Below, piece by piece: positions 17,424-22,704 of a stretch of 24,000 nucleotides of DNA. A program made the position numbers and the translations under genes. This DNA is from Sediminibacterium sp. (GTDB taxonomy: Bacteria > Bacteroidota > Bacteroidia > B-17B0 > Aurantibacillaceae). The stretch lies in contig JASGCO010000010.1 in NCBI GenBank assembly GCA_030054095.1, positions 102,865 to 126,864 on the forward strand, written 5' to 3'. The first letter of the stretch is position 1. Each line of letters begins with the position of its first letter. The notes below the pieces were generated by a model. It was not told where the DNA came from and did no database searches. It saw only the letters and a list, made by a program, of their open reading frames with translations.

Positions 17424-17563
17424 AAACAGGTTAAGAACGGATAAACGCTTATTTTGTGCTCTAACCAACTGAGCTACACGTTAACCCTTAATAGGATTAA
17501 AAGTGGATGGGCTCGAACCACCGACCGCAAAAGCCGAAGTAAGTTTATTCTACGACACTGTTT
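17424..17563 (-). ncRNA. Y-RNA-like domain a: bulged long stem plus a permuted tRNA-like core (17452..17532)
   Basis: AAACAG-(9 nt)-ATAAAC-(8 nt)-GC-TTTTG-CGGTC-[GGTGG-TTCGAGC-CCATC]-[CAC..TTAATCC-TATTAA-GGGTTAA..GTG]-TA-[GCTC-AGTTGGTTA-GAGC]-A-CAAAA-TAA-GC-GTTTAT-(11 nt)-CTGTTT. The stems pair as AAACAG/CTGTTT, ATAAAC/GTTTAT and TTTTG/CAAAA. Confidence 0.6.
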
Positions 17564-17649
17564 AATAGGTATAAGAAGCAAAAGCAGGCGAAAGGAATAA
17601 GACACGTTCATTATCAGCGAAGTAAGTCTTATAAACGGCACTGCGTTTG

Positions 17650-17757
17650 TTTGAAAAGCAAGGGTAACGTATGTGTTTCCATCTCTGAATACAGAGAGGA
17701 TAAGGAGTCGAACCTTAATATTTGCCAGAAGTAACACACGTTTACGGCATTTTCAAA
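17650..17757 (-). ncRNA. Y-RNA-like domain d (108 nt): long bulged stem topped by a T arm and closed acceptor-like hairpin, with no D arm
   Basis: TTTGAAAA-TGCC-GTAAACGTGTGTT-ACTTCTGGCAAATAT-[TAAGG-TTCGACT-CCTTA]-[TCCTCTCTG-TATT-CAGAGATGGA]-AACACATACGTTAC-CCTTGC-TTTTCAAA. The outer 8-bp and inner ~12-bp stems are separated by an internal loop. Confidence 0.5.
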
Positions 17758-17931
17758 GCGATGACGAACACTTTCCATAGAGTAATACTTTCACAGGTGG
17801 GATTTTTCGTATAAGGATTTGCACCTTTCCTGTATGCGTTACCAAACAGGCCCTTCCCTTTCTAATGGTCGAAGTATCCTGTACTCACGACATCTATGTA
17901 AGCAGTTCGTCAATAGTTTGCTTCTTATTTT

Positions 17932-17948
17932 CAATATGTAAAAGAACG
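17932..17948 (-). repeat. 17-mer CAATATGTAAAAGAACG, copy 2
   Basis: Exact copy of 17021..17037. Begins 3 nt after the 3' end of tRNA-like remnant c. Confidence 0.85.
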
Positions 17949-17951
17949 ATG

Positions 17952-18060
17952 TGGCCCTGATGAGATTCGAACTCATATTTTCGTAACGAACAGTATGGCT
18001 GCAAATACGCTTCCCTACTTTGTTTCCATTTCGGTGCACTGTAAACTGAGCCCTTCGCAA
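17952..18060 (-). ncRNA. tRNA-like remnant c: D-arm-like and T-arm elements in normal order with a ~36-nt excess between them and an unpaired acceptor
   Basis: GCTC-AGTTTACA-GTGC (18036-18051), then ATGAG-TTCGAAT-CTCAT (17960-17976), then CAGGGCC-A. No complementary 5' acceptor strand was found. The 3' trailer is the same as that of tRNA-Tyr. Confidence 0.35.
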
Positions 18061-18146
18061 CGCGCAGTCACGCCGGGATTATCCATACACTCCGCGGACA
18101 GATTAAATTTTTCCGCAGCTTTTCCTTTTAAGCTACAGAGCCTTTT

Positions 18147-18176
18147 AAAACCCCGCCGTCCCCATTAACGGCGGGG
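18147..18176 (-). terminator. Rho-independent terminator of rsr
   Basis: Minus read CCCCGCCGT-TAATGGGG-ACGGCGGGG followed by TTTT, starting 4 nt after the rsr stop. Confidence 0.85.
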
Positions 18177-18179
18177 TGA

Positions 18180-19697
18180 TTATAGCGGTAGCTGTTTTAT
18201 TACTTCTACCGCGCTGCTTCCGTTTTCAAGCGCGTCCAGAACGTCAAACACTTTATCAGACCATCCTGCAATCAGCCAGACATCTTTCTGCAACAGGTTT
18301 ACAGGTGTAGTGCCATATCCGGCTAAGTCAAACAGATACAATCGGGCGGCAGGTGCCAGTAATTTATATTGCATCCAGGCTTTTTGCATGCTATGGTTAC
18401 CACCTTTACTGTTCCAAAGTTGACAATCAGTAAAAAGGACAACTTTATCCATCACCAGTTTACGTTTAATCAGATCTTCGATAACCAGATGACCATTGGT
18501 GGCATACCCCACTTCACCTTCCCGTTTATAAAAAGCGTTTACATTTGCCAATACGTTACGGGATGGCATGTTCACTACTTTCCATTTATCTCCGAACATG
18601 CCACTGATGACGGTTTCACATTTTGACTGCAGTAACATGGCCAACATTAAACCAATATCGTAAAGCAGTATTTTACTTTTGGGCGATATAGGCTTCTGCA
18701 TGGAGCCAGACACATCACAGGCAATCAGTACACGCGCATCCTTATCGAACCCCTTCATGTTTACCACACTCTGGCTAACAGCATCTTCCAGTGCATTAAG
18801 CAATTTGGAAGTATGCCAGGAACTAACACTGCTTAATTCGCGGTAAGCAGCCAGAAAACGGAATGGTAACTGCTTTGAGTTAGCGACTGCTTTGCTGTCG
18901 CTTAACGTGGCGCATACTATTCCGATATGTTTCCCAGACACACCGGCTTCCAGTATGTTGCGCAGATTTCGTAACAGCGCCATGTACCCCAACTGCCCAC
19001 TATCGATCAACTCCTCCCATTTTGCTGTAAACGCTTTATTTTTCGCTTTCATGGTTTCGAATTTCTGTTGCCCAAGCGCCGATAATTCCGTTTCCCAGGT
19101 ATATGGTGTAGCCAAAGTGCCAGCGGCTATTTTATTGAACAGTGTTTGCTGGCGTTCATCTTTTGCTTTAGGATGAACCAGAAACAACGCGTCGCGTAGC
19201 CTTATTTCGCCGGAGCGATCGTACTTGGCAAACTGGTATTCATCAAACTGATTAAATGCCAATGATAAACCCTTTTGGACCTGTTTCGACAATCTGTTTA
19301 ATTTTTTTACGCCATGCCGTTTGTTTGCCAATTGATAGTAAGCCAGCAATTCGGTTATTTCGTCGGCCCGTTTTACGACCTGATGAATCGTTTTGCTCAC
19401 CAGTGAAGTTCCGGCATGCCGCTTTGCCATCTCAACCGCCAGTACCATAGGAATGCTCCGTAAATGCATTTGATGACGTGCATAAATGGCCAGGCGGGCT
19501 ATATACTCAGGATCATTCTTCAACATCAGATCCTGAATGCGCGCTAAACGATCACTTCCTTTTTCGTAAAAGGTATCACTTAACGCGGCAGTAGATACGG
19601 CGGCATACAATTCCATTTCAGGACTCATGCTGTAAGCTGCAGCCTCTTCATGGTTCAGAGTGCTGTTCGCATTTCGTTTTAAGATGTTGAATTTCAT
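18180..19697 (-). CDS. rsr: Ro60 orthologue (Rsr): TROVE domain plus vWA domain
   Basis: 505 aa. N-terminal TROVE-type HEAT-repeat region (HEEAAAYSMSPEMELY..LSDTFYE..), C-terminal vWA with MIDAS DxSxS (CDVSGSM). Flanked by tRNA-like RNAs, as at known rsr loci. Confidence 0.85.
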   Translation of the reverse strand: MKFNILKRNANSTLNHEEAAAYSMSPEMELYAAVSTAALSDTFYEKGSDRLARIQDLMLKNDPEYIARLAIYARHQMHLRSIPMVLAVEMAKRHAGTSLVSKTIHQVVKRADEITELLAYYQLANKRHGVKKLNRLSKQVQKGLSLAFNQFDEYQFAKYDRSGEIRLRDALFLVHPKAKDERQQTLFNKIAAGTLATPYTWETELSALGQQKFETMKAKNKAFTAKWEELIDSGQLGYMALLRNLRNILEAGVSGKHIGIVCATLSDSKAVANSKQLPFRFLAAYRELSSVSSWHTSKLLNALEDAVSQSVVNMKGFDKDARVLIACDVSGSMQKPISPKSKILLYDIGLMLAMLLQSKCETVISGMFGDKWKVVNMPSRNVLANVNAFYKREGEVGYATNGHLVIEDLIKRKLVMDKVVLFTDCQLWNSKGGNHSMQKAWMQYKLLAPAARLYLFDLAGYGTTPVNLLQKDVWLIAGWSDKVFDVLDALENGSSAVEVIKQLPL

Positions 19698-19751
19698 AAA
19701 TTCTGTTTTTAGTACTATTTGTTTTATTTAACACGACAAAGGTTATATGTA

Positions 19752-19774
19752 AGTGCGCAGTGGTATTGCGTAGT
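19752..19774. promoter_or_regulatory. Operator-like imperfect palindrome, site 1 (AGTGCGCAG-N6-TGCGTAGT)
   Basis: 17/23 identical to site 2. Lies 55-77 nt upstream of the rsr start in the rsr/WYL divergent intergenic region. Confidence 0.4.
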
Positions 19775-19864
19775 AAAACATTTTTTTGTAAAAACCGCCA
19801 GATACTATTTAAACGATTGATATTCAATGTGTAAATTTCAAAGCGATTCAACCGGATGTATTAA

Positions 19865-19887
19865 ACTGCGCAGATAGATTGCGCAGT
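19865..19887. promoter_or_regulatory. Operator-like palindrome, site 2 (ACTGCGCAG-ATAGAT-TGCGCAGT)
   Basis: Inverted repeat AACTGCGCA(19864-19872)/TGCGCAGTT(19880-19888), 48 nt upstream of the WYL-regulator start. It is followed by a T-run, so a hairpin or attenuator is an alternative reading. Confidence 0.45.
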
Positions 19888-19935
19888 TTTTAATTTTTTT
19901 GCATCTTTAAACGCATTAACTACTGCTATAAACCT

Positions 19936-20955
19936 ATGCCAATCAACAAACTTGCGCTTATCCGCTACAAAACCATTGATAATTGCCTGCAAAACCGATT
20001 CCGTAAATGGACGCTGGACGACCTGATGGAGGCGTGTTCAGATGCTCTGTACGAGTACGAGGGAATTACCAGGGGTATTAGCCGGCGAACGCTTCAGATG
20101 GATTTACAAGCCATGCGAAGTGAAAAACTGGGCTATAACGCGCCCATTGTAGTAACCGATAAAAAGTACTACAGTTACGAGGACAAAAATTACAGCATTA
20201 CCAATAGTCCGCTTAATAGTCAGGATTTAGGAACCTTAACGGAAGTGCTGGGGGTATTGCAACAGTTTAAAGGGTTTAGCTATTTTGAAGAACTAACCGG
20301 AATGGTAACCCGTCTGGAGGATAAATTGTATAAACAGCAGCACAAAGGTCAATCGTATATTGACTTTGAAAAGAATGAATTACTGAGGGGCCTTAATCAC
20401 ATTGATGGATTGCATAAAGCAATCATTCAAAGGCAGACCCTTGAAGTGGTTTATCAGTCTTTTAAAGCCCGTGAAGCACAAGTGCTGGTGTTCTATCCGT
20501 ATTTGCTAAAAGAGTACCGGAACCGCTGGTTTCTTTTGGGGGTTAGCCGCAAAGGGAAAAGCGTGATGATACTGGCTTTGGATCGTATCGTACAATTTAA
20601 ATCAGTTCCTACGGAAAAATACCATAAGCCCGGGTTTGATGTGACTGCCTATTTTAGTGATGTTATAGGTGTGTCAAAGGTTCCTGATCAAAAACCGATT
20701 AATGTAGTTTTAAAGATCATACGCGAACACGCGCCTTACATCATTACCAAGCCCATACACCCCTCTCAGAAAATTCTGAAAGAGGAAAGGGATGGCACTA
20801 TTTTCTCACTGGATGTGATCTGGAATTTTGAACTTGAGCGCGAAATTCTTGGATTTGGCGAACAAATCAAAGTCTTGGCTCCCAAACGTCTGGCAGGGAA
20901 GATAATCAGTCGCCTGAAAAAAAGCACCATGCAGTATCAGGAAAGGGCTGATTAA
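19936..20955 (+). CDS. WYL-domain transcriptional regulator (N-terminal HTH, central WYL, C-terminal extension)
   Basis: 339 aa. N-terminal winged-HTH-like segment (RYKTIDNCL..ISRRTLQMDLQAMR). WYL core YPYLLKEYRNRWFLLGV. Confidence 0.8.
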   Translation: MPINKLALIRYKTIDNCLQNRFRKWTLDDLMEACSDALYEYEGITRGISRRTLQMDLQAMRSEKLGYNAPIVVTDKKYYSYEDKNYSITNSPLNSQDLGTLTEVLGVLQQFKGFSYFEELTGMVTRLEDKLYKQQHKGQSYIDFEKNELLRGLNHIDGLHKAIIQRQTLEVVYQSFKAREAQVLVFYPYLLKEYRNRWFLLGVSRKGKSVMILALDRIVQFKSVPTEKYHKPGFDVTAYFSDVIGVSKVPDQKPINVVLKIIREHAPYIITKPIHPSQKILKEERDGTIFSLDVIWNFELEREILGFGEQIKVLAPKRLAGKIISRLKKSTMQYQERAD

Positions 20956-21072
20956 TGTATGCCCGTGTTATACTACTATAGTGACTCAATTTTGCCCAAA
21001 ATTTTCTCTGGAAAAGTTGGGCTAAATATGCCAGATGCAAGTTCCGGCTTAGGCTATAGGGTAACATATAAC

Positions 21073-21089
21073 CAATATGTCAAAGAACA
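21073..21089 (-). repeat. Variant copy of the 17-mer (CAATATGTCAAAGAACA)
   Basis: 15/17 match to 17021..17037. Starts 2 nt after the CCA end of tRNA-Tyr on the transcribed strand. Confidence 0.7.
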
Positions 21090-21091
21090 TG

Positions 21092-21178
21092 TGGTGGGAA
21101 TGGTAGGATTCGAACCTACTCAGCCCAAAGGCAACAGATTTACAGTCTGTCCCGGCTCTCCAGCTCCGGCGCATTCCC
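21092..21178 (-). tRNA. tRNA-Tyr (anticodon GTA), class II, with encoded CCA
   Basis: GGGAATG-CG-CCGG-AGCTGGAGAG-CCGG-G-ACAGA-CTGTAAA-TCTGT-TGCCTTTGGGCTGA-GTAGG-TTCGAAT-CCTAC-CATTCCC-A-CCA. Confidence 0.9.
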
Positions 21179-21244
21179 AGATAGACGCAATAAAATGAAG
21201 GTGGGAGTCGTGTGTTTCATTGCGTCTGGGTTAATGGTTGTTTA

Positions 21245-21763
21245 CTAAAAGAAGAAGAAACGCTTTTCAATTAATCCGTTTTTTGTTTTAAGGCGTTCCA
21301 TACTTTCCAGTAGTGTATCCATTTCTTGTTTGTTAAGTGCATAGCGAATGGCCATTTTATAGGCTTGCGTCGCTTGTTTGTAGTGTTCGTTTACTTCATA
21401 CGATCGTCCCATTAAGGTGTATAGTATGTTTTTATTAACCCCTTCTACTGTAAGGACTTTTTCTGTATGTTCGATCAGCGCAGTATGCCGGTTCATAAAA
21501 AGCAGTAAGTGCGCCATGTTCAGGTAACCTGCCGGATACATGGGATCGAAGCGTATGGCCAGTCCATAATGATACTCTGCTTTTTCATAGTCATCCAGTT
21601 TGGCAAAGTACAGCCAACCCAAATGGTTATGCGCTTTGCCAAAGCCGGGTTCACTTTCCAGCAGTTCTTCCAGAATCTTTTTTCCTTCTGGAAATTCTCC
21701 CTTACTAAAATGATCGTCAACTTTTAAAAACAGTTCTTCGATCCATGAAGCATTCGTTTTCAT
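21245..21763 (-). CDS. Tetratricopeptide-repeat (TPR) protein
   Basis: 172 aa with repeated A/Y/L-spaced helical pairs (AHNHLGWLYF..YEKAEYHYGLAIRFDP; YTLMGRSYEV..YKQATQAYKMAI). Confidence 0.7.
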   Translation of the reverse strand: MKTNASWIEELFLKVDDHFSKGEFPEGKKILEELLESEPGFGKAHNHLGWLYFAKLDDYEKAEYHYGLAIRFDPMYPAGYLNMAHLLLFMNRHTALIEHTEKVLTVEGVNKNILYTLMGRSYEVNEHYKQATQAYKMAIRYALNKQEMDTLLESMERLKTKNGLIEKRFFFF

Positions 21764-21818
21764 ATCGCGTGTTTAAATAGTCTTTTACCTACTGTTGCAC
21801 ATGGCAACTTTACGTTTG

Positions 21819-21892
21819 CCGATTCATCAGGAGTCGAACCTGAAACCCCCGGCTTCGTAAACCGGTGCTCTGTCCAATTGAGCTATGAATCG
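21819..21892 (-). tRNA. tRNA-Arg (anticodon ACG)
   Basis: CGATTCA-TA-GCTC-AATTGGACA-GAGC-A-CCGGT-TTACGAA-GCCGG-GGGTT-TCAGG-TTCGACT-CCTGA-TGAATCG-G. Followed by a CAAAC trailer. Confidence 0.9.
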
Positions 21893-21972
21893 TTGATACG
21901 AACAGGGACAGCAGTTTAGCATGTCGTATTGTATTTAGCAGTGCGTTACATTCCTACCCTCCGTTCATTTTG

Positions 21973-22045
21973 TTGAGATAACAGGGATTGAACCTGTAGC
22001 CTTCTGCGTATAAGGCAGCTGCTCTTACCATTGAGCTATATCTCA
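21973..22045 (-). tRNA. tRNA with anticodon TAT (Ile, AUA-reading type)
   Basis: TGAGATA-TA-GCTC-AATGGTAA-GAGC-A-GCTGC-CTTATAC-GCAGA-AGGCT-ACAGG-TTCAATC-CCTGT-TATCTCA-A. One G:A at 27:43, otherwise canonical. Confidence 0.75.
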
Positions 22046-22050
22046 GTTTG

Positions 22051-22200
22051 CGGAGAGTACAGGAATCGAACCCCCTCTCTACGAGTGCTCAAGTTTTCAT
22101 GCCGGTGTTTTCGGCAGGAAGCATGTTGCGGTCATTTGGCATTTTATTTAGGCAAATGACCGGAGCAAGACTTGTTGTACACCATGTACGCTACTCTCCG
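22051..22200 (-). ncRNA. 150-nt tRNA-like RNA with a Ser-type 8-9 bp acceptor stem, compact D hairpin, weak T arm and a ~85-nt structured insertion at the anticodon-loop position
   Basis: 5' CGGAGAGTA pairs with 3' TACTCTCCG. D hairpin GTACA-TGG-TGTAC. CAAGT/ACTTG stem enclosing hairpins CGGTCATTTG..CAAATGACCG (10 bp) and TGCCG-AAAACAC-CGGCA. T region GGGGG-TTCGATT-CCTGT has mismatches. 3' trailer CAAAC. Confidence 0.4.
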
Positions 22201-22204
22201 TTAG

Positions 22205-22273
22205 CCGGTCAGGACAAATGGAAATAGCTTTTTTTTGGGAAAGCAGCCATTGTTCCATCTGCCTGATAACCGG
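22205..22273 (-). ncRNA. 69-nt rod-like imperfect hairpin filling one slot of the tRNA array
   Basis: CCGGT-TAT-CAGG..ATGGAA..(A/U-rich loop)..TTCCAT..CCTG-ACCGG. Not a cloverleaf. Confidence 0.4.
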
Positions 22274-22277
22274 CAAG

Positions 22278-22350
22278 GTTGAGATAAGGGAATCGAACCC
22301 TTATTTACTGCGCCACAAGCAGTCGTGCTAACCGTTACACTAATCTCAAC
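22278..22350 (-). tRNA. tRNA-His (anticodon GTG) with encoded G-1
   Basis: G-TTGAGAT-TA-GTGT-AACGGTTA-GCAC-G-ACTGC-TTGTGGC-GCAGT-AAAT-AAGGG-TTCGATT-CCCTT-ATCTCAA-C. The G-1:C73 pair is the bacterial His identity feature. Confidence 0.9.
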
Positions 22351-22356
22351 GTGTTA

Positions 22357-22428
22357 ACGACTCATCATGATTTGAACCTGAACCTCCGGCTCCGTAGGCT
22401 GACGCTCTGTCCATTGAGCTATGAATCG
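22357..22428 (-). tRNA. Degenerate paralogue of tRNA-Arg(ACG); possible pseudogene
   Basis: CGATTCA-TA-GCTC-AATGGACA-GAGC-G-TCAGC-CTACGGA-GCCGG-AGGT-TCAGG-TTCAAAT-CATGA-TGAGTCG-T. Same acceptor and D arm as 21819..21892, but with A:C in the anticodon stem, G:A in the T stem, and discriminator T instead of G. Confidence 0.5.
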
Positions 22429-22434
22429 TTTATG

Positions 22435-22507
22435 TGGACACGAATGGAGTTGCACCATTTTCTCACCGTCTTCAGCGGCGCGCATATACTACATCTGCTA
22501 CATGTCC
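22435..22507 (-). tRNA. tRNA-Phe-like (anticodon GAA) with non-canonical D and T loops
   Basis: GGACATG-TA-GCA-GATGTAGTATA-TGC-G-CGCCG-CTGAAGA-CGGTG-AGAA-AATGG-TGCAACT-CCATT-CGTGTCC-A. Good stems, but no GG in the D loop and TGC instead of TTC in the T loop. Confidence 0.5.
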
Positions 22508-22513
22508 GTTTTG

Positions 22514-22585
22514 TCGGGAAAGCAGGACTCGAACCTGCAACCCCGGGCACCCAAAGCCCGGCTTCTGACATTGAATTATTTCCCG
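22514..22585 (-). tRNA. tRNA-Pro-like (anticodon TGG) with a D loop lacking GG
   Basis: CGGGAAA-TA-ATTC-AATGTCA-GAAG-C-CGGGC-TTTGGGT-GCCCG-GGGTT-GCAGG-TTCGAGT-CCTGC-TTTCCCG-A. Confidence 0.6.
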
Positions 22586-22610
22586 TATATAAAAGAACGT
22601 TTTGCGTTTG

Positions 22611-22698
22611 CGGAGAATTGAGTTCCCGACACTCATTCTTTCGATGAAAGAACGCTTTGTTTAGCAAACAAGCCCGGACCCCGTCCGGTTAATTCTCC
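22611..22698 (-). tRNA. 88-nt Sec/allo-tRNA-like cloverleaf (8-bp acceptor, 6-bp D stem, long variable arm, 4-bp T stem), Ser-type acceptor, anticodon GCT
   Basis: GGAGAATT-AA-CCGGAC-GGG-GTCCGG-GCTTGT-TTGCTAA-ACAAAGC-G-TTCTTTC-ATC-GAAAGAA-T-GAGT-GTCGGGA-ACTC-AATTCTCC-G, followed by CAAAC. Confidence 0.45.
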
Positions 22699-22704
22699 AA
22701 ATTG

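Follow-up and report, generated by a model that had tools for sequence, protein, structure and literature searches.

A probable phage-type (8/4) serine tRNA in the tRNA array of a conserved Bacteroidota RNA-repair island

The window analyzed here is a 24,000-nucleotide (nt) stretch of contig JASGCO010000010.1 of Sediminibacterium sp. (assembly GCA_030054095.1), and its minus strand carries an array of tRNA genes with a gene for an ATP-dependent RNA ligase immediately upstream. Within this array, between tRNA-Leu(UAA) (22704-22779) and tRNA-Pro(UGG) (22513-22585) and on the same strand as both, lies an 88-nt element that can be drawn as a tRNA cloverleaf with an acceptor stem of 8 base pairs (bp), a T stem of 4 bp and the anticodon GCU. 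The element, its parts and the principal neighboring features are listed in Table 1. The rest of the window contains MacB/FtsX, HlyD and ABC genes, and the longer source contig codes for a Por_Secre_tail protein and a shikimate dehydrogenase; these surroundings point to a Bacteroidota chromosome. The comparative evidence, drawn from nucleotide sequences, indicates that the element is very probably a genuine, functional serine tRNA of the (8/4) type, in which the acceptor and T stems comprise 8 and 4 bp, respectively, instead of the canonical 7 and 5.

Table 1. Coordinates of the candidate tRNA gene, its parts and associated features. Positions refer to the window unless another sequence is named; alignments A2 and A3 and covariance model R1 are described in the text.
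Feature	Position	Strand	Remarks
Complete (8/4) tRNA-Ser(GCU) gene (candidate)	22611..22698	-	G1 = 22698; discriminator G73 = 22611
Acceptor stem, 5' strand GGAGAAUU, 8 nt	22691..22698	-	partner 22612-22619
Acceptor stem, 3' strand AAUUCUCC	22612..22619	-	pairing in A3
AA connector, 2 nt, acceptor to D stem	22689..22690	-	invariant in A2, near-universal in phage members
D arm: 6-bp stem CCGGAC/GUCCGG, 3-nt GGG loop	22674..22688	-	covariation in A3
Anticodon arm: 6-bp stem, extra nucleotide in 3' strand, 7-nt loop UUGCUAA	22654..22673	-	A3
Anticodon GCU (AGY serine codons)	22663..22665	-	invariant in A2
Long variable arm UUCUUUC-AUC-GAAAGAA, 7 bp and 3-nt loop	22636..22652	-	A3
T arm: 4-bp stem GAGU/ACUC, loop GUCGGGA	22620..22634	-	stem 100% paired in A3
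tRNA array holding the candidate	21818..22932	-	order along minus strand: Gln, Leu(UAG), Leu(UAA), 8/4 Ser(GCU), Pro, Phe, Arg, His, interrupted Ser(UGA), Ile(UAU), Arg
Further tRNA: Tyr	21092-21178
Further tRNA: Lys	17188-17261
Further tRNA: Thr	14688-14760
ATP-dependent RNA ligase	22999..24000	-	PHA02142 OB and RNA_ligase domains; JGI name TIGR02306 family
WYL-WCX domain regulator	19936..20955	+	conserved array neighbor, divergently oriented
Rsr/Ro60 orthologue	18180..19697	-	TROVE and vWA domains
8/4 genes of phage cr85_1 (UGA and GCU)	L323 1378-1463, 1501-1587 = MT774390.1 2087-2172, 2210-2296		R1

Read from 22698 to 22611, the minus strand of the element is GGAGAATT-AA-CCGGAC-GGG-GTCCGG-GCTTGT-TTGCTAA-ACAAAGC-G-TTCTTTC-ATC-GAAAGAA-T-GAGT-GTCGGGA-ACTC-AATTCTCC-G, which agrees letter for letter with the sequence and fold given in an earlier reading of this DNA made without database searches (the sequence-only reading). 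When the 89-nt RNA was folded without constraints, its structure of minimum free energy was this same four-arm cloverleaf, at -34.1 kcal/mol, compared to a mean of -21.7 kcal/mol (standard deviation 3.2) for shuffled sequences (z = -3.90), and none of the 200 shuffles was as stable. The elements of serine identity are in place, namely the discriminator G73, the first acceptor pairs (G1-C72, G2-C71 and A3-U70) and the long variable arm. The D arm can alternatively be read only as a 5-bp stem with a 5-nt loop; its GGG loop offers candidate equivalents of G18 and G19. The T loop is non-canonical in that U55 and C56 are retained while G replaces both U54 and A58, and the 3' strand of the anticodon stem contains an extra A. 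CCA is not encoded at the 3' end, where the following bases are CAAAC. A scan for sigma-70 promoters and terminators, whose coverage excludes the promoters of Bacteroidota, marked the D arm itself as terminator-like.

Standard detectors pass over this gene. ARAGORN called 12 tRNAs in the window, the candidate not being among them, and Rfam at its gathering threshold returned the same 12. The neighboring tRNAs scored 46-77 bits against RF00005, whose gathering score is 29 bits, and the candidate had no match to this model. At the relaxed threshold of E<=10, a search of the surrounding 2.1-kb region gave no match of tRNA, selenocysteine tRNA (tRNA-Sec), YrlA or any other family to the candidate, and a search of a 106-nt region gave noise only (snoZ159 and TYMV_upPK), again with no tRNA, tRNA-Sec or YrlA. 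The comparison with tRNA and tRNA-Sec covariance models, which the sequence-only reading had proposed as a check, was thus negative, and the support comes instead from a family-specific model and from covariation. The silence of ARAGORN and Rfam could also be taken to mean that the element is a decayed tRNA pseudogene, or a set of chance hairpins between two real tRNA genes, the more so as the nearby Ser(UGA) gene of the same array is disrupted by a 68-nt insertion. Such an explanation has to be weighed against the conservation of the element in other genomes.

Homologues of the RNA ligase were aligned and used to retrieve 80 genomic loci. Where the ligase was most similar (11 loci, 68-72% identity, Bacteroidota metagenome-assembled genomes), an array of the same type lies 3' of the ligase gene in every case, and 10 of these loci hold a clear homologue of the candidate in the same array slot. 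The same array lies 3' of the ligase in L001-L010, L015 and L201, and L201 also has the homologue; the search for relatives at other ligase loci, suggested beforehand, was therefore fruitful. In locus L004, the position after Leu(UAA), where the other arrays carry the 8/4 form, is occupied by a canonical 7/5 tRNA-Ser(GCU). Since the canonical form takes that slot, the two forms appear to be functionally equivalent, which implies that the 8/4 form would do the same job as a canonical tRNA-Ser(GCU).

A plain MAFFT alignment of 11 sequences from 11 loci (A2) places 98.6% of the cells of the proposed helices in pairs, with compensatory changes in 15 of the 29 pairs. None of 500 shuffles reached this level, and pairing dropped to 35-51% when the 3' partners were slid by 1-3 columns. 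A covariance model built from this alignment (R1) gives the candidate 100.9 bits (E = 2.7e-21). Metagenomes were then scanned with a pattern for the T arm and acceptor; most of the 120 matches were due to chance, and the 17 that passed R1 were added as members. Divergent members were contributed by L161, L166, L172, L105 and L050, the last being from the isolate Emticicia sp. C21 (contig NZ_QVMT01000014.1, about 53377-53460), and L099 holds two copies, with anticodons CGA and GGA. Members of the family score 46-105 bits with R1, compared to only about 25 bits for the canonical (7/5) tRNA-Ser(GCU) genes called by the standard tool.

The resulting set of 24 distinct island-borne members (A3) strengthens the pairing pattern: 97.6% of the cells are paired, 26 of the 29 pairs show compensatory changes, again none of 500 shuffles does as well, and the slid controls fall to 35-50%. 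The acceptor stem is paired in 100% of its cells, with compensatory change in 6 of its 8 pairs; the D stem is 98.6% paired and all 6 of its pairs are compensated, as are all 6 anticodon-stem pairs; and the five outer pairs of the variable arm all covary (95.8% paired), an arm whose sequence and length differ freely from locus to locus in A2. The discriminator is G73 in 24 of 24 members, and the anticodons are exclusively those of serine. The concern raised in advance, that the covariance might be no better than that of shuffled controls, is thus answered by both alignments.

The division of the acceptor branch requires separate consideration, as a 7/5 reading was seriously entertained. Among the 11 closest sequences, U8 and the nucleotides on either side of the T stem (U before it, A after it) show no variation, a pattern that fits 8/4 and 7/5 alike. 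In A3 the eighth acceptor pair is U-A in 18 members, A-U in 4 and G-C in 2, and is unpaired in none of the 24, whereas the pair specific to the 7/5 form is U-A in 18 and broken in the other 6. The eighth pair therefore covaries while its competitor does not hold, which supports the 8/4 reading, and the 7/5 reading was rejected once these distant members had been added.

Relatives of the gene were also sought in viruses. With megablast, the array had no match among 50,697 phage records, and a blastn search of the candidate alone against the same records gave one chance match (E = 0.2). A first viral pattern, consisting of the T arm and the 3' acceptor strand (GTGTCGNNAACTCNNNNCTCCG), had no matches; the combination of T loop and stem in that pattern is specific to the island lineage. 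When a pattern describing the cloverleaf's 5' half was run over IMG/VR and followed by R1, 83 matches were obtained, representing 66 distinct sequences with the same architecture, and several contigs had more than one copy. These phage sequences are 93.4% paired, with compensatory changes in 27 of 29 pairs, and their 4-bp T stem is 99.2% paired and covarying. The eighth acceptor pair is A-U in 37, U-A in 16, G-C in 8 and of another kind in 5. The 8-bp acceptor and 4-bp T stem of the sequence-only reading are accordingly borne out by 24 island and 66 phage sequences, and the structural claims made for the 8/4 cloverleaf are supported by covariation and not by the drawing alone.

The anticodons of the phage members are likewise all of serine (GCU in 51, UGA in 11, GGA in 3 and CGA in 1), so that the whole family, more than 90 distinct sequences, contains GCU, UGA, GGA and CGA only. 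As discriminator, 53 have G, 12 have U and one has A. Throughout the family U33 and A37 are maintained, the anticodon loop YUGCUAA is invariant among the GCU members, and the D loop is NGG in all island and phage members. Both oddities pointed out in the sequence-only reading recur: the T loop GUCGGGA is found in 10 of the distinct phage sequences, UUCGAGU being present in 21, and the bulged A of the anticodon stem corresponds to a one-nucleotide excess in the 3' strand of every member, phages included. Given the strong covariation, a sequence maintained across ligase homologues that are only 59-72% identical, the invariant anticodon loop and the failure of any shuffle to fold as well, a pseudogene or a chance structure is scarcely credible, and we regard it as ruled out by the covariation in A2, A3 and the phage set.

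An instructive case is the complete crAss-like phage cr85_1 (MT774390.1, Crassvirales), for which 21 tRNAs specific for 17 amino acids are annotated and no tRNA-Ser is listed. R1 finds two unannotated 8/4 genes exactly in a 272-nt hole of its tRNA array, a Ser(UGA) with the T loop GUCGGGA (69.6 bits) and a Ser(GCU) (55.1 bits). Their presence is hard to explain unless these RNAs are the serine tRNAs of the phage. The same unannotated situation probably occurs in cr111_1 (MT774387.1, ~87856-87941). A further contig, L225 (IMG/VR contig 3300032030_000028), carries five separate 8/4 serine tRNA genes between 5376 and 10300, with anticodons that include GCU, GGA, CGA and UGA, so that a full set of 8/4 serine isoacceptors is encoded by some phages. 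Judged by these relatives, the 8/4 lineage of the candidate is of phage type.

The candidate is thus best interpreted as a genuine serine tRNA, in view of its structure and conservation, the restriction of the family to serine anticodons, the conserved U33 and A37, G73 and the first acceptor pairs, its membership of a tRNA array and its replacement by a canonical gene in L004. The serine identity proposed in the sequence-only reading agrees with this evidence. If so, the gene would be co-transcribed with the rest of the minus-strand array, downstream of the RNA ligase gene, and the transcript would be excised by RNase P and a 3' processing enzyme and supplied with CCA post-transcriptionally, since this is not encoded. 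Seryl-tRNA synthetase (SerRS) would charge the product by recognizing its long variable arm, the discriminator G73 and the first pairs of the acceptor stem, ignoring the anticodon, and EF-Tu would accept it through a standard 12-bp acceptor/T branch. The tRNA is predicted to decode both AGU and AGC, the elbow of its L-shape being held by the GG of the D loop together with U55 and C56 of the T loop. Several of these steps have precedents. According to Mukai et al., SerRS charges 8/4 and 9/3 tRNAs, such tRNAs insert serine in Escherichia coli, and G73 and U73 are the two discriminators tied to SerRS (PMC5389517). Cryo-EM of an allo-tRNA derivative revealed that, even with a compact D loop, the G18:U55 and G19:C56 contacts can be made on the ribosome (PMC9561287).

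The 8-bp acceptor, the 6-bp D and anticodon stems and the long variable arm also resemble tRNA-Sec (PMC7609411), and engineered allo-tRNAs can carry selenocysteine via EF-Tu (PMC9561287). The RNA might thus belong to a selenocysteine pathway, in which it would be serylated, converted by SelA by virtue of its 8-bp acceptor and 6-bp D stem, and used to recode AGY or another codon. Bacterial tRNA-Sec (selC; RF01852) shares with the candidate the acceptor and D stem lengths, the variable arm and an initial serylation by SerRS. It differs, however, in having a 13-bp (8/5) branch instead of 12 bp, a 4-nt D loop, the anticodon UCA instead of GCU and a need for SelA and SelB, none of which applies to the candidate. 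There was no Rfam tRNA-Sec match at E<=10, domains of SelA, SelB and SelD were absent among the open reading frames scanned, and the family covers all serine codon boxes and is abundant in phages. A selenocysteine role is therefore very improbable, and the statement of the sequence-only reading that the gene is not a selC stands on the anticodon, the length of the branch and the lack of a tRNA-Sec match.

Several observations weigh against a translational role. The T loop lacks the universal U54/A58 pair, with G at both positions, the conserved bulge in the anticodon stem might distort the helix, and no standard model recognizes the gene. The candidate also lies in an RNA-repair island beside Rsr, a setting in which tRNA mimics, the Y RNAs, are known. 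The serious rival is thus a non-translating tRNA mimic, which could act as a decoy or sensor for tRNA-targeting nucleases, as a Y-RNA-like ligand of Rsr/Ro60 or as a signal for the WYL regulator, its tRNA-like shape and anticodon loop being kept only for recognition by those proteins. The company of an RNA ligase, Rsr, a WYL regulator and an RNase T-like exonuclease would suit such a function, as would the G54/G58 T loop and the bulged stem. Some groups of allo-tRNAs are, according to Mukai et al., translationally inactive and associated with toxin-antitoxin loci (PMC5389517), and bacterial Y RNAs resemble tRNA, a kink in the YrlA stem corresponding to the anticodon stem (PMC4201824; bioRxiv 10.1101/312249).

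Nevertheless, the open acceptor stem with its discriminator G73 and the normal 7-nt anticodon loop do not correspond to the YrlA topology, in which the acceptor-like stem is closed and both RNA ends contribute to the Ro60-binding helix, and no YrlA (RF02553) match to the candidate was found at E<=10. Separate Y-RNA-like modules are located directly downstream of rsr, and locus L201, which is devoid of rsr, keeps the gene almost unchanged; for these reasons the Y-RNA reading was rejected. A mimic of any kind would also have to account for the serine anticodons throughout more than 90 distinct sequences, for the canonical tRNA-Ser(GCU) that substitutes in L004, and for phage cr85_1, where the 8/4 genes are the sole serine tRNAs of an otherwise broad set. 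We consider the mimic unlikely, and the functional serine tRNA remains the preferred reading.

A related question is why a bacterial chromosome should maintain such a gene. The candidate would represent a phage-type lineage that was fixed in the auxiliary tRNA array of a Bacteroidota RNA-repair or stress island comprising the RNA ligase, the WYL regulator, Rsr, a Band 7 protein and an RNase T-like exonuclease. Its most likely role is that of a spare or replacement serine tRNA, as suggested by two considerations, the conserved linkage of ligase, array, WYL regulator and Rsr-Band 7, and the analogy with tRNA arrays induced by stress (PMC8421152). A more speculative idea, possible though on balance doubtful, is that the remodeled body (the 8/4 split, the mini D loop, the G54/G58 T loop and the bulge) is an escape adaptation, by which the tRNA can be charged by SerRS yet would be invisible to toxins and nucleases that target tRNA; the whole ligase-array-WYL-Rsr island would then be a co-regulated "replace and repair" module captured from phages.

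The island itself (13738-24000 of the window) is conserved in Bacteroidota, occurring also in L201, L050, L114, L132 and L082. In addition to the ligase, an array of 10-14 genes, the WYL-WCX regulator and Rsr, it includes a TPR protein, a Band 7/SPFH protein, an S24-like protein and an RNase T-like exonuclease, all of which are present in the window. The arrays recurrently contain Gln(UUG), Leu(UAG/UAA), Pro(UGG), Phe, Arg(ACG), His, Ile(UAU), Tyr, Lys(UUU) and Thr(UGU). No description of the ligase-array-WYL-Rsr linkage was found in the literature surveyed, which left out the RNA-repair survey of Burroughs and Aravind (2016). Locus L201, from another sample and with a ligase 86% identical to that of the window, is the nearest relative of the island and lacks rsr between the WYL regulator and Band 7 (L201 4268-6220, compared to 17262-19935 of the window). 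It keeps the array and an almost identical copy of the 8/4 tRNA, so that rsr is dispensable for maintenance of the array.

Downstream of rsr, three or four tRNA-like modules occupy 17278-18060 of the minus strand, with GGTTCGA T-arm motifs near 17975, 17715, 17520 and 17365. Weak Rfam YrlA matches were obtained at 17437-17549 (28.1 bits) and 17278-17388 (26.1 bits), the gathering score being 69, and the tRNA model matched 17344-17483 with a long internal insert (32.8 bits). These modules are probably Y-RNA-like partners of the Bacteroidota Ro60 that have diverged from the curated YrlA family. Two spacers of the array also deserve mention, both on the minus strand. Between tRNA-His and the interrupted Ser(UGA) gene, 22201-22276 forms a near-perfect hairpin of about 70 nt with an A-rich loop, which is almost identical in L201 and might serve as a signal for processing or termination or represent a small RNA. 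The 79-nt spacer between tRNA-Ile(UAU) and tRNA-Arg(ACG), at 21893-21971, contains two motifs resembling anticodon loops, CUGCUAA and AUGCUAA, folds weakly (-17.5 kcal/mol) and is not called by ARAGORN; it may be a decayed remnant of a serine tRNA.

A second non-canonical serine tRNA, of the UGA family, is situated in the same array on the minus strand (22050-22200) and is interrupted by a 68-nt insert (22100-22167). Its acceptor comprises 8 bp (GGAGAGUA/UACUCUCC) and is followed by a GC connector and a D stem of 5 bp closed by a UGG loop; the T loop, UUCGAUU, is canonical. The insert follows C32-U33 directly in the anticodon loop, is flanked by TG on both sides and can form two hairpins. The gene is uninterrupted in the 86% relative L201 and at ten other loci, and deletion of the insert in silico restores a tRNA-Ser(UGA) that ARAGORN calls. 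No second copy of the insert was found in the sequences searched. Its length rules out a group I intron, and the RNA ligase gene is about 800 nt away from the tRNA gene; the insert may have inactivated the tRNA gene or may be a small intron of a novel kind.

The present findings have implications beyond this locus. The 8/4 gene is widespread and invisible to standard tools, ARAGORN and all Rfam models being blind to the class, and serine tRNAs are consequently "missing" from Bacteroidota and crAss-like phage genomes as these are published. The family, with more than 90 natural and covarying sequences, shows tolerance of a D loop of 3 nt, of a T loop that lacks the U54-A58 pair and of a bulge in the anticodon stem, a diversity that may be useful to designers of orthogonal tRNAs, who already employ allo-tRNAs. 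The gene belongs constantly to the conserved island (RNA ligase, array, WYL regulator, Rsr and Y-RNA-like modules), which points to a link between tRNA replacement and RNA repair, and the family member in the isolate Emticicia sp. C21 provides an experimentally tractable context.

Among known systems, the closest are the tRNAs with 8/4 and 9/3 acceptor branches described by Mukai et al. (2017, NAR 45:2776; PMC5389517), to whose main text the following comparisons refer. The (8/4) tRNA-Ser reported there from bacteriophages, proteobacteria and rumen Clostridia resembles the candidate in its 12-bp 8/4 branch, long variable arm, G73 (or U73) and serine anticodon, and also in a long, tRNA-Sec-like D stem, a location in tRNA clusters and frequent carriage by phages. 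The candidate shows those features of the class that can be read from sequence, namely the 8+4 branch, the long variable arm, G73 and the serine anticodon. The family described here differs in its hosts, a Bacteroidota chromosome and Crassvirales phages, and the word "Bacteroidetes" is absent from that main text. Its NGG triloop, GUCGGGA T loop and anticodon-stem bulge also set it apart, as judged by the main-text description of the class.

The allo-tRNAs (8/4 and 9/3) of Acidobacteria, Clostridia and Proteobacteria (PMC5389517; PMC7609411) have in common with the candidate the 8/4 architecture, the SerRS identity elements, a compact D arm, and acceptor and anticodon stems of increased length. 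According to Mukai et al. (PMC5389517), they bear mostly non-serine anticodons, corresponding to 35 codons, and either suppress missense or nonsense codons or are inactive RNAs found near toxin-antitoxin loci, whereas the present family is confined to serine. The same source describes a D tetraloop, with a pyrimidine at position 20 (Y20) for the (8/4) tRNA-Ser that it includes; the candidate, by contrast, has the 3-nt NGG loop and no position-20 pyrimidine. The likeness to tRNA-Sec and allo-tRNAs noted in the sequence-only reading consequently holds for the 8/4 split and for the long, covarying 6-bp D stem, but the strict allo-tRNA label does not, as both the D tetraloop with Y20 and the non-serine anticodons are lacking. 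The best label is "(8/4) tRNA-Ser" and not allo-tRNA in the strict sense.

With regard to its setting, the array resembles a chromosomal auxiliary array of diverged tRNA genes described in 2021, for which a back-up role was proposed and which in Anabaena is co-regulated with an RNA repair ligase, rtcB (PMC8421152). The island array is shorter (~12-14 genes), includes 8/4 serine tRNAs and is physically joined to an ATP-dependent ligase of the TIGR02306 type, a WYL regulator and Rsr. A further parallel is offered by phage tRNAs in which changes in the anticodon loop allow escape from anticodon nucleases (van den Berg et al. 2023, PMC10264068), as phage-derived spares that could replace attacked host tRNAs; in the candidate, however, the anticodon loop is canonical and it is the body (D arm, T loop and acceptor/T split) that is remodeled, and a role in evasion is putative. 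The 8/4 serine tRNA class is thus already published, and what is new is its host range, which extends to a Bacteroidota chromosome and Crassvirales, and its fixed place in the ligase/WYL/Rsr island, together with some anatomical details (the NGG triloop, a T loop with G54 and G58, and the bulge in the anticodon stem) when set against the main-text description of the published class.

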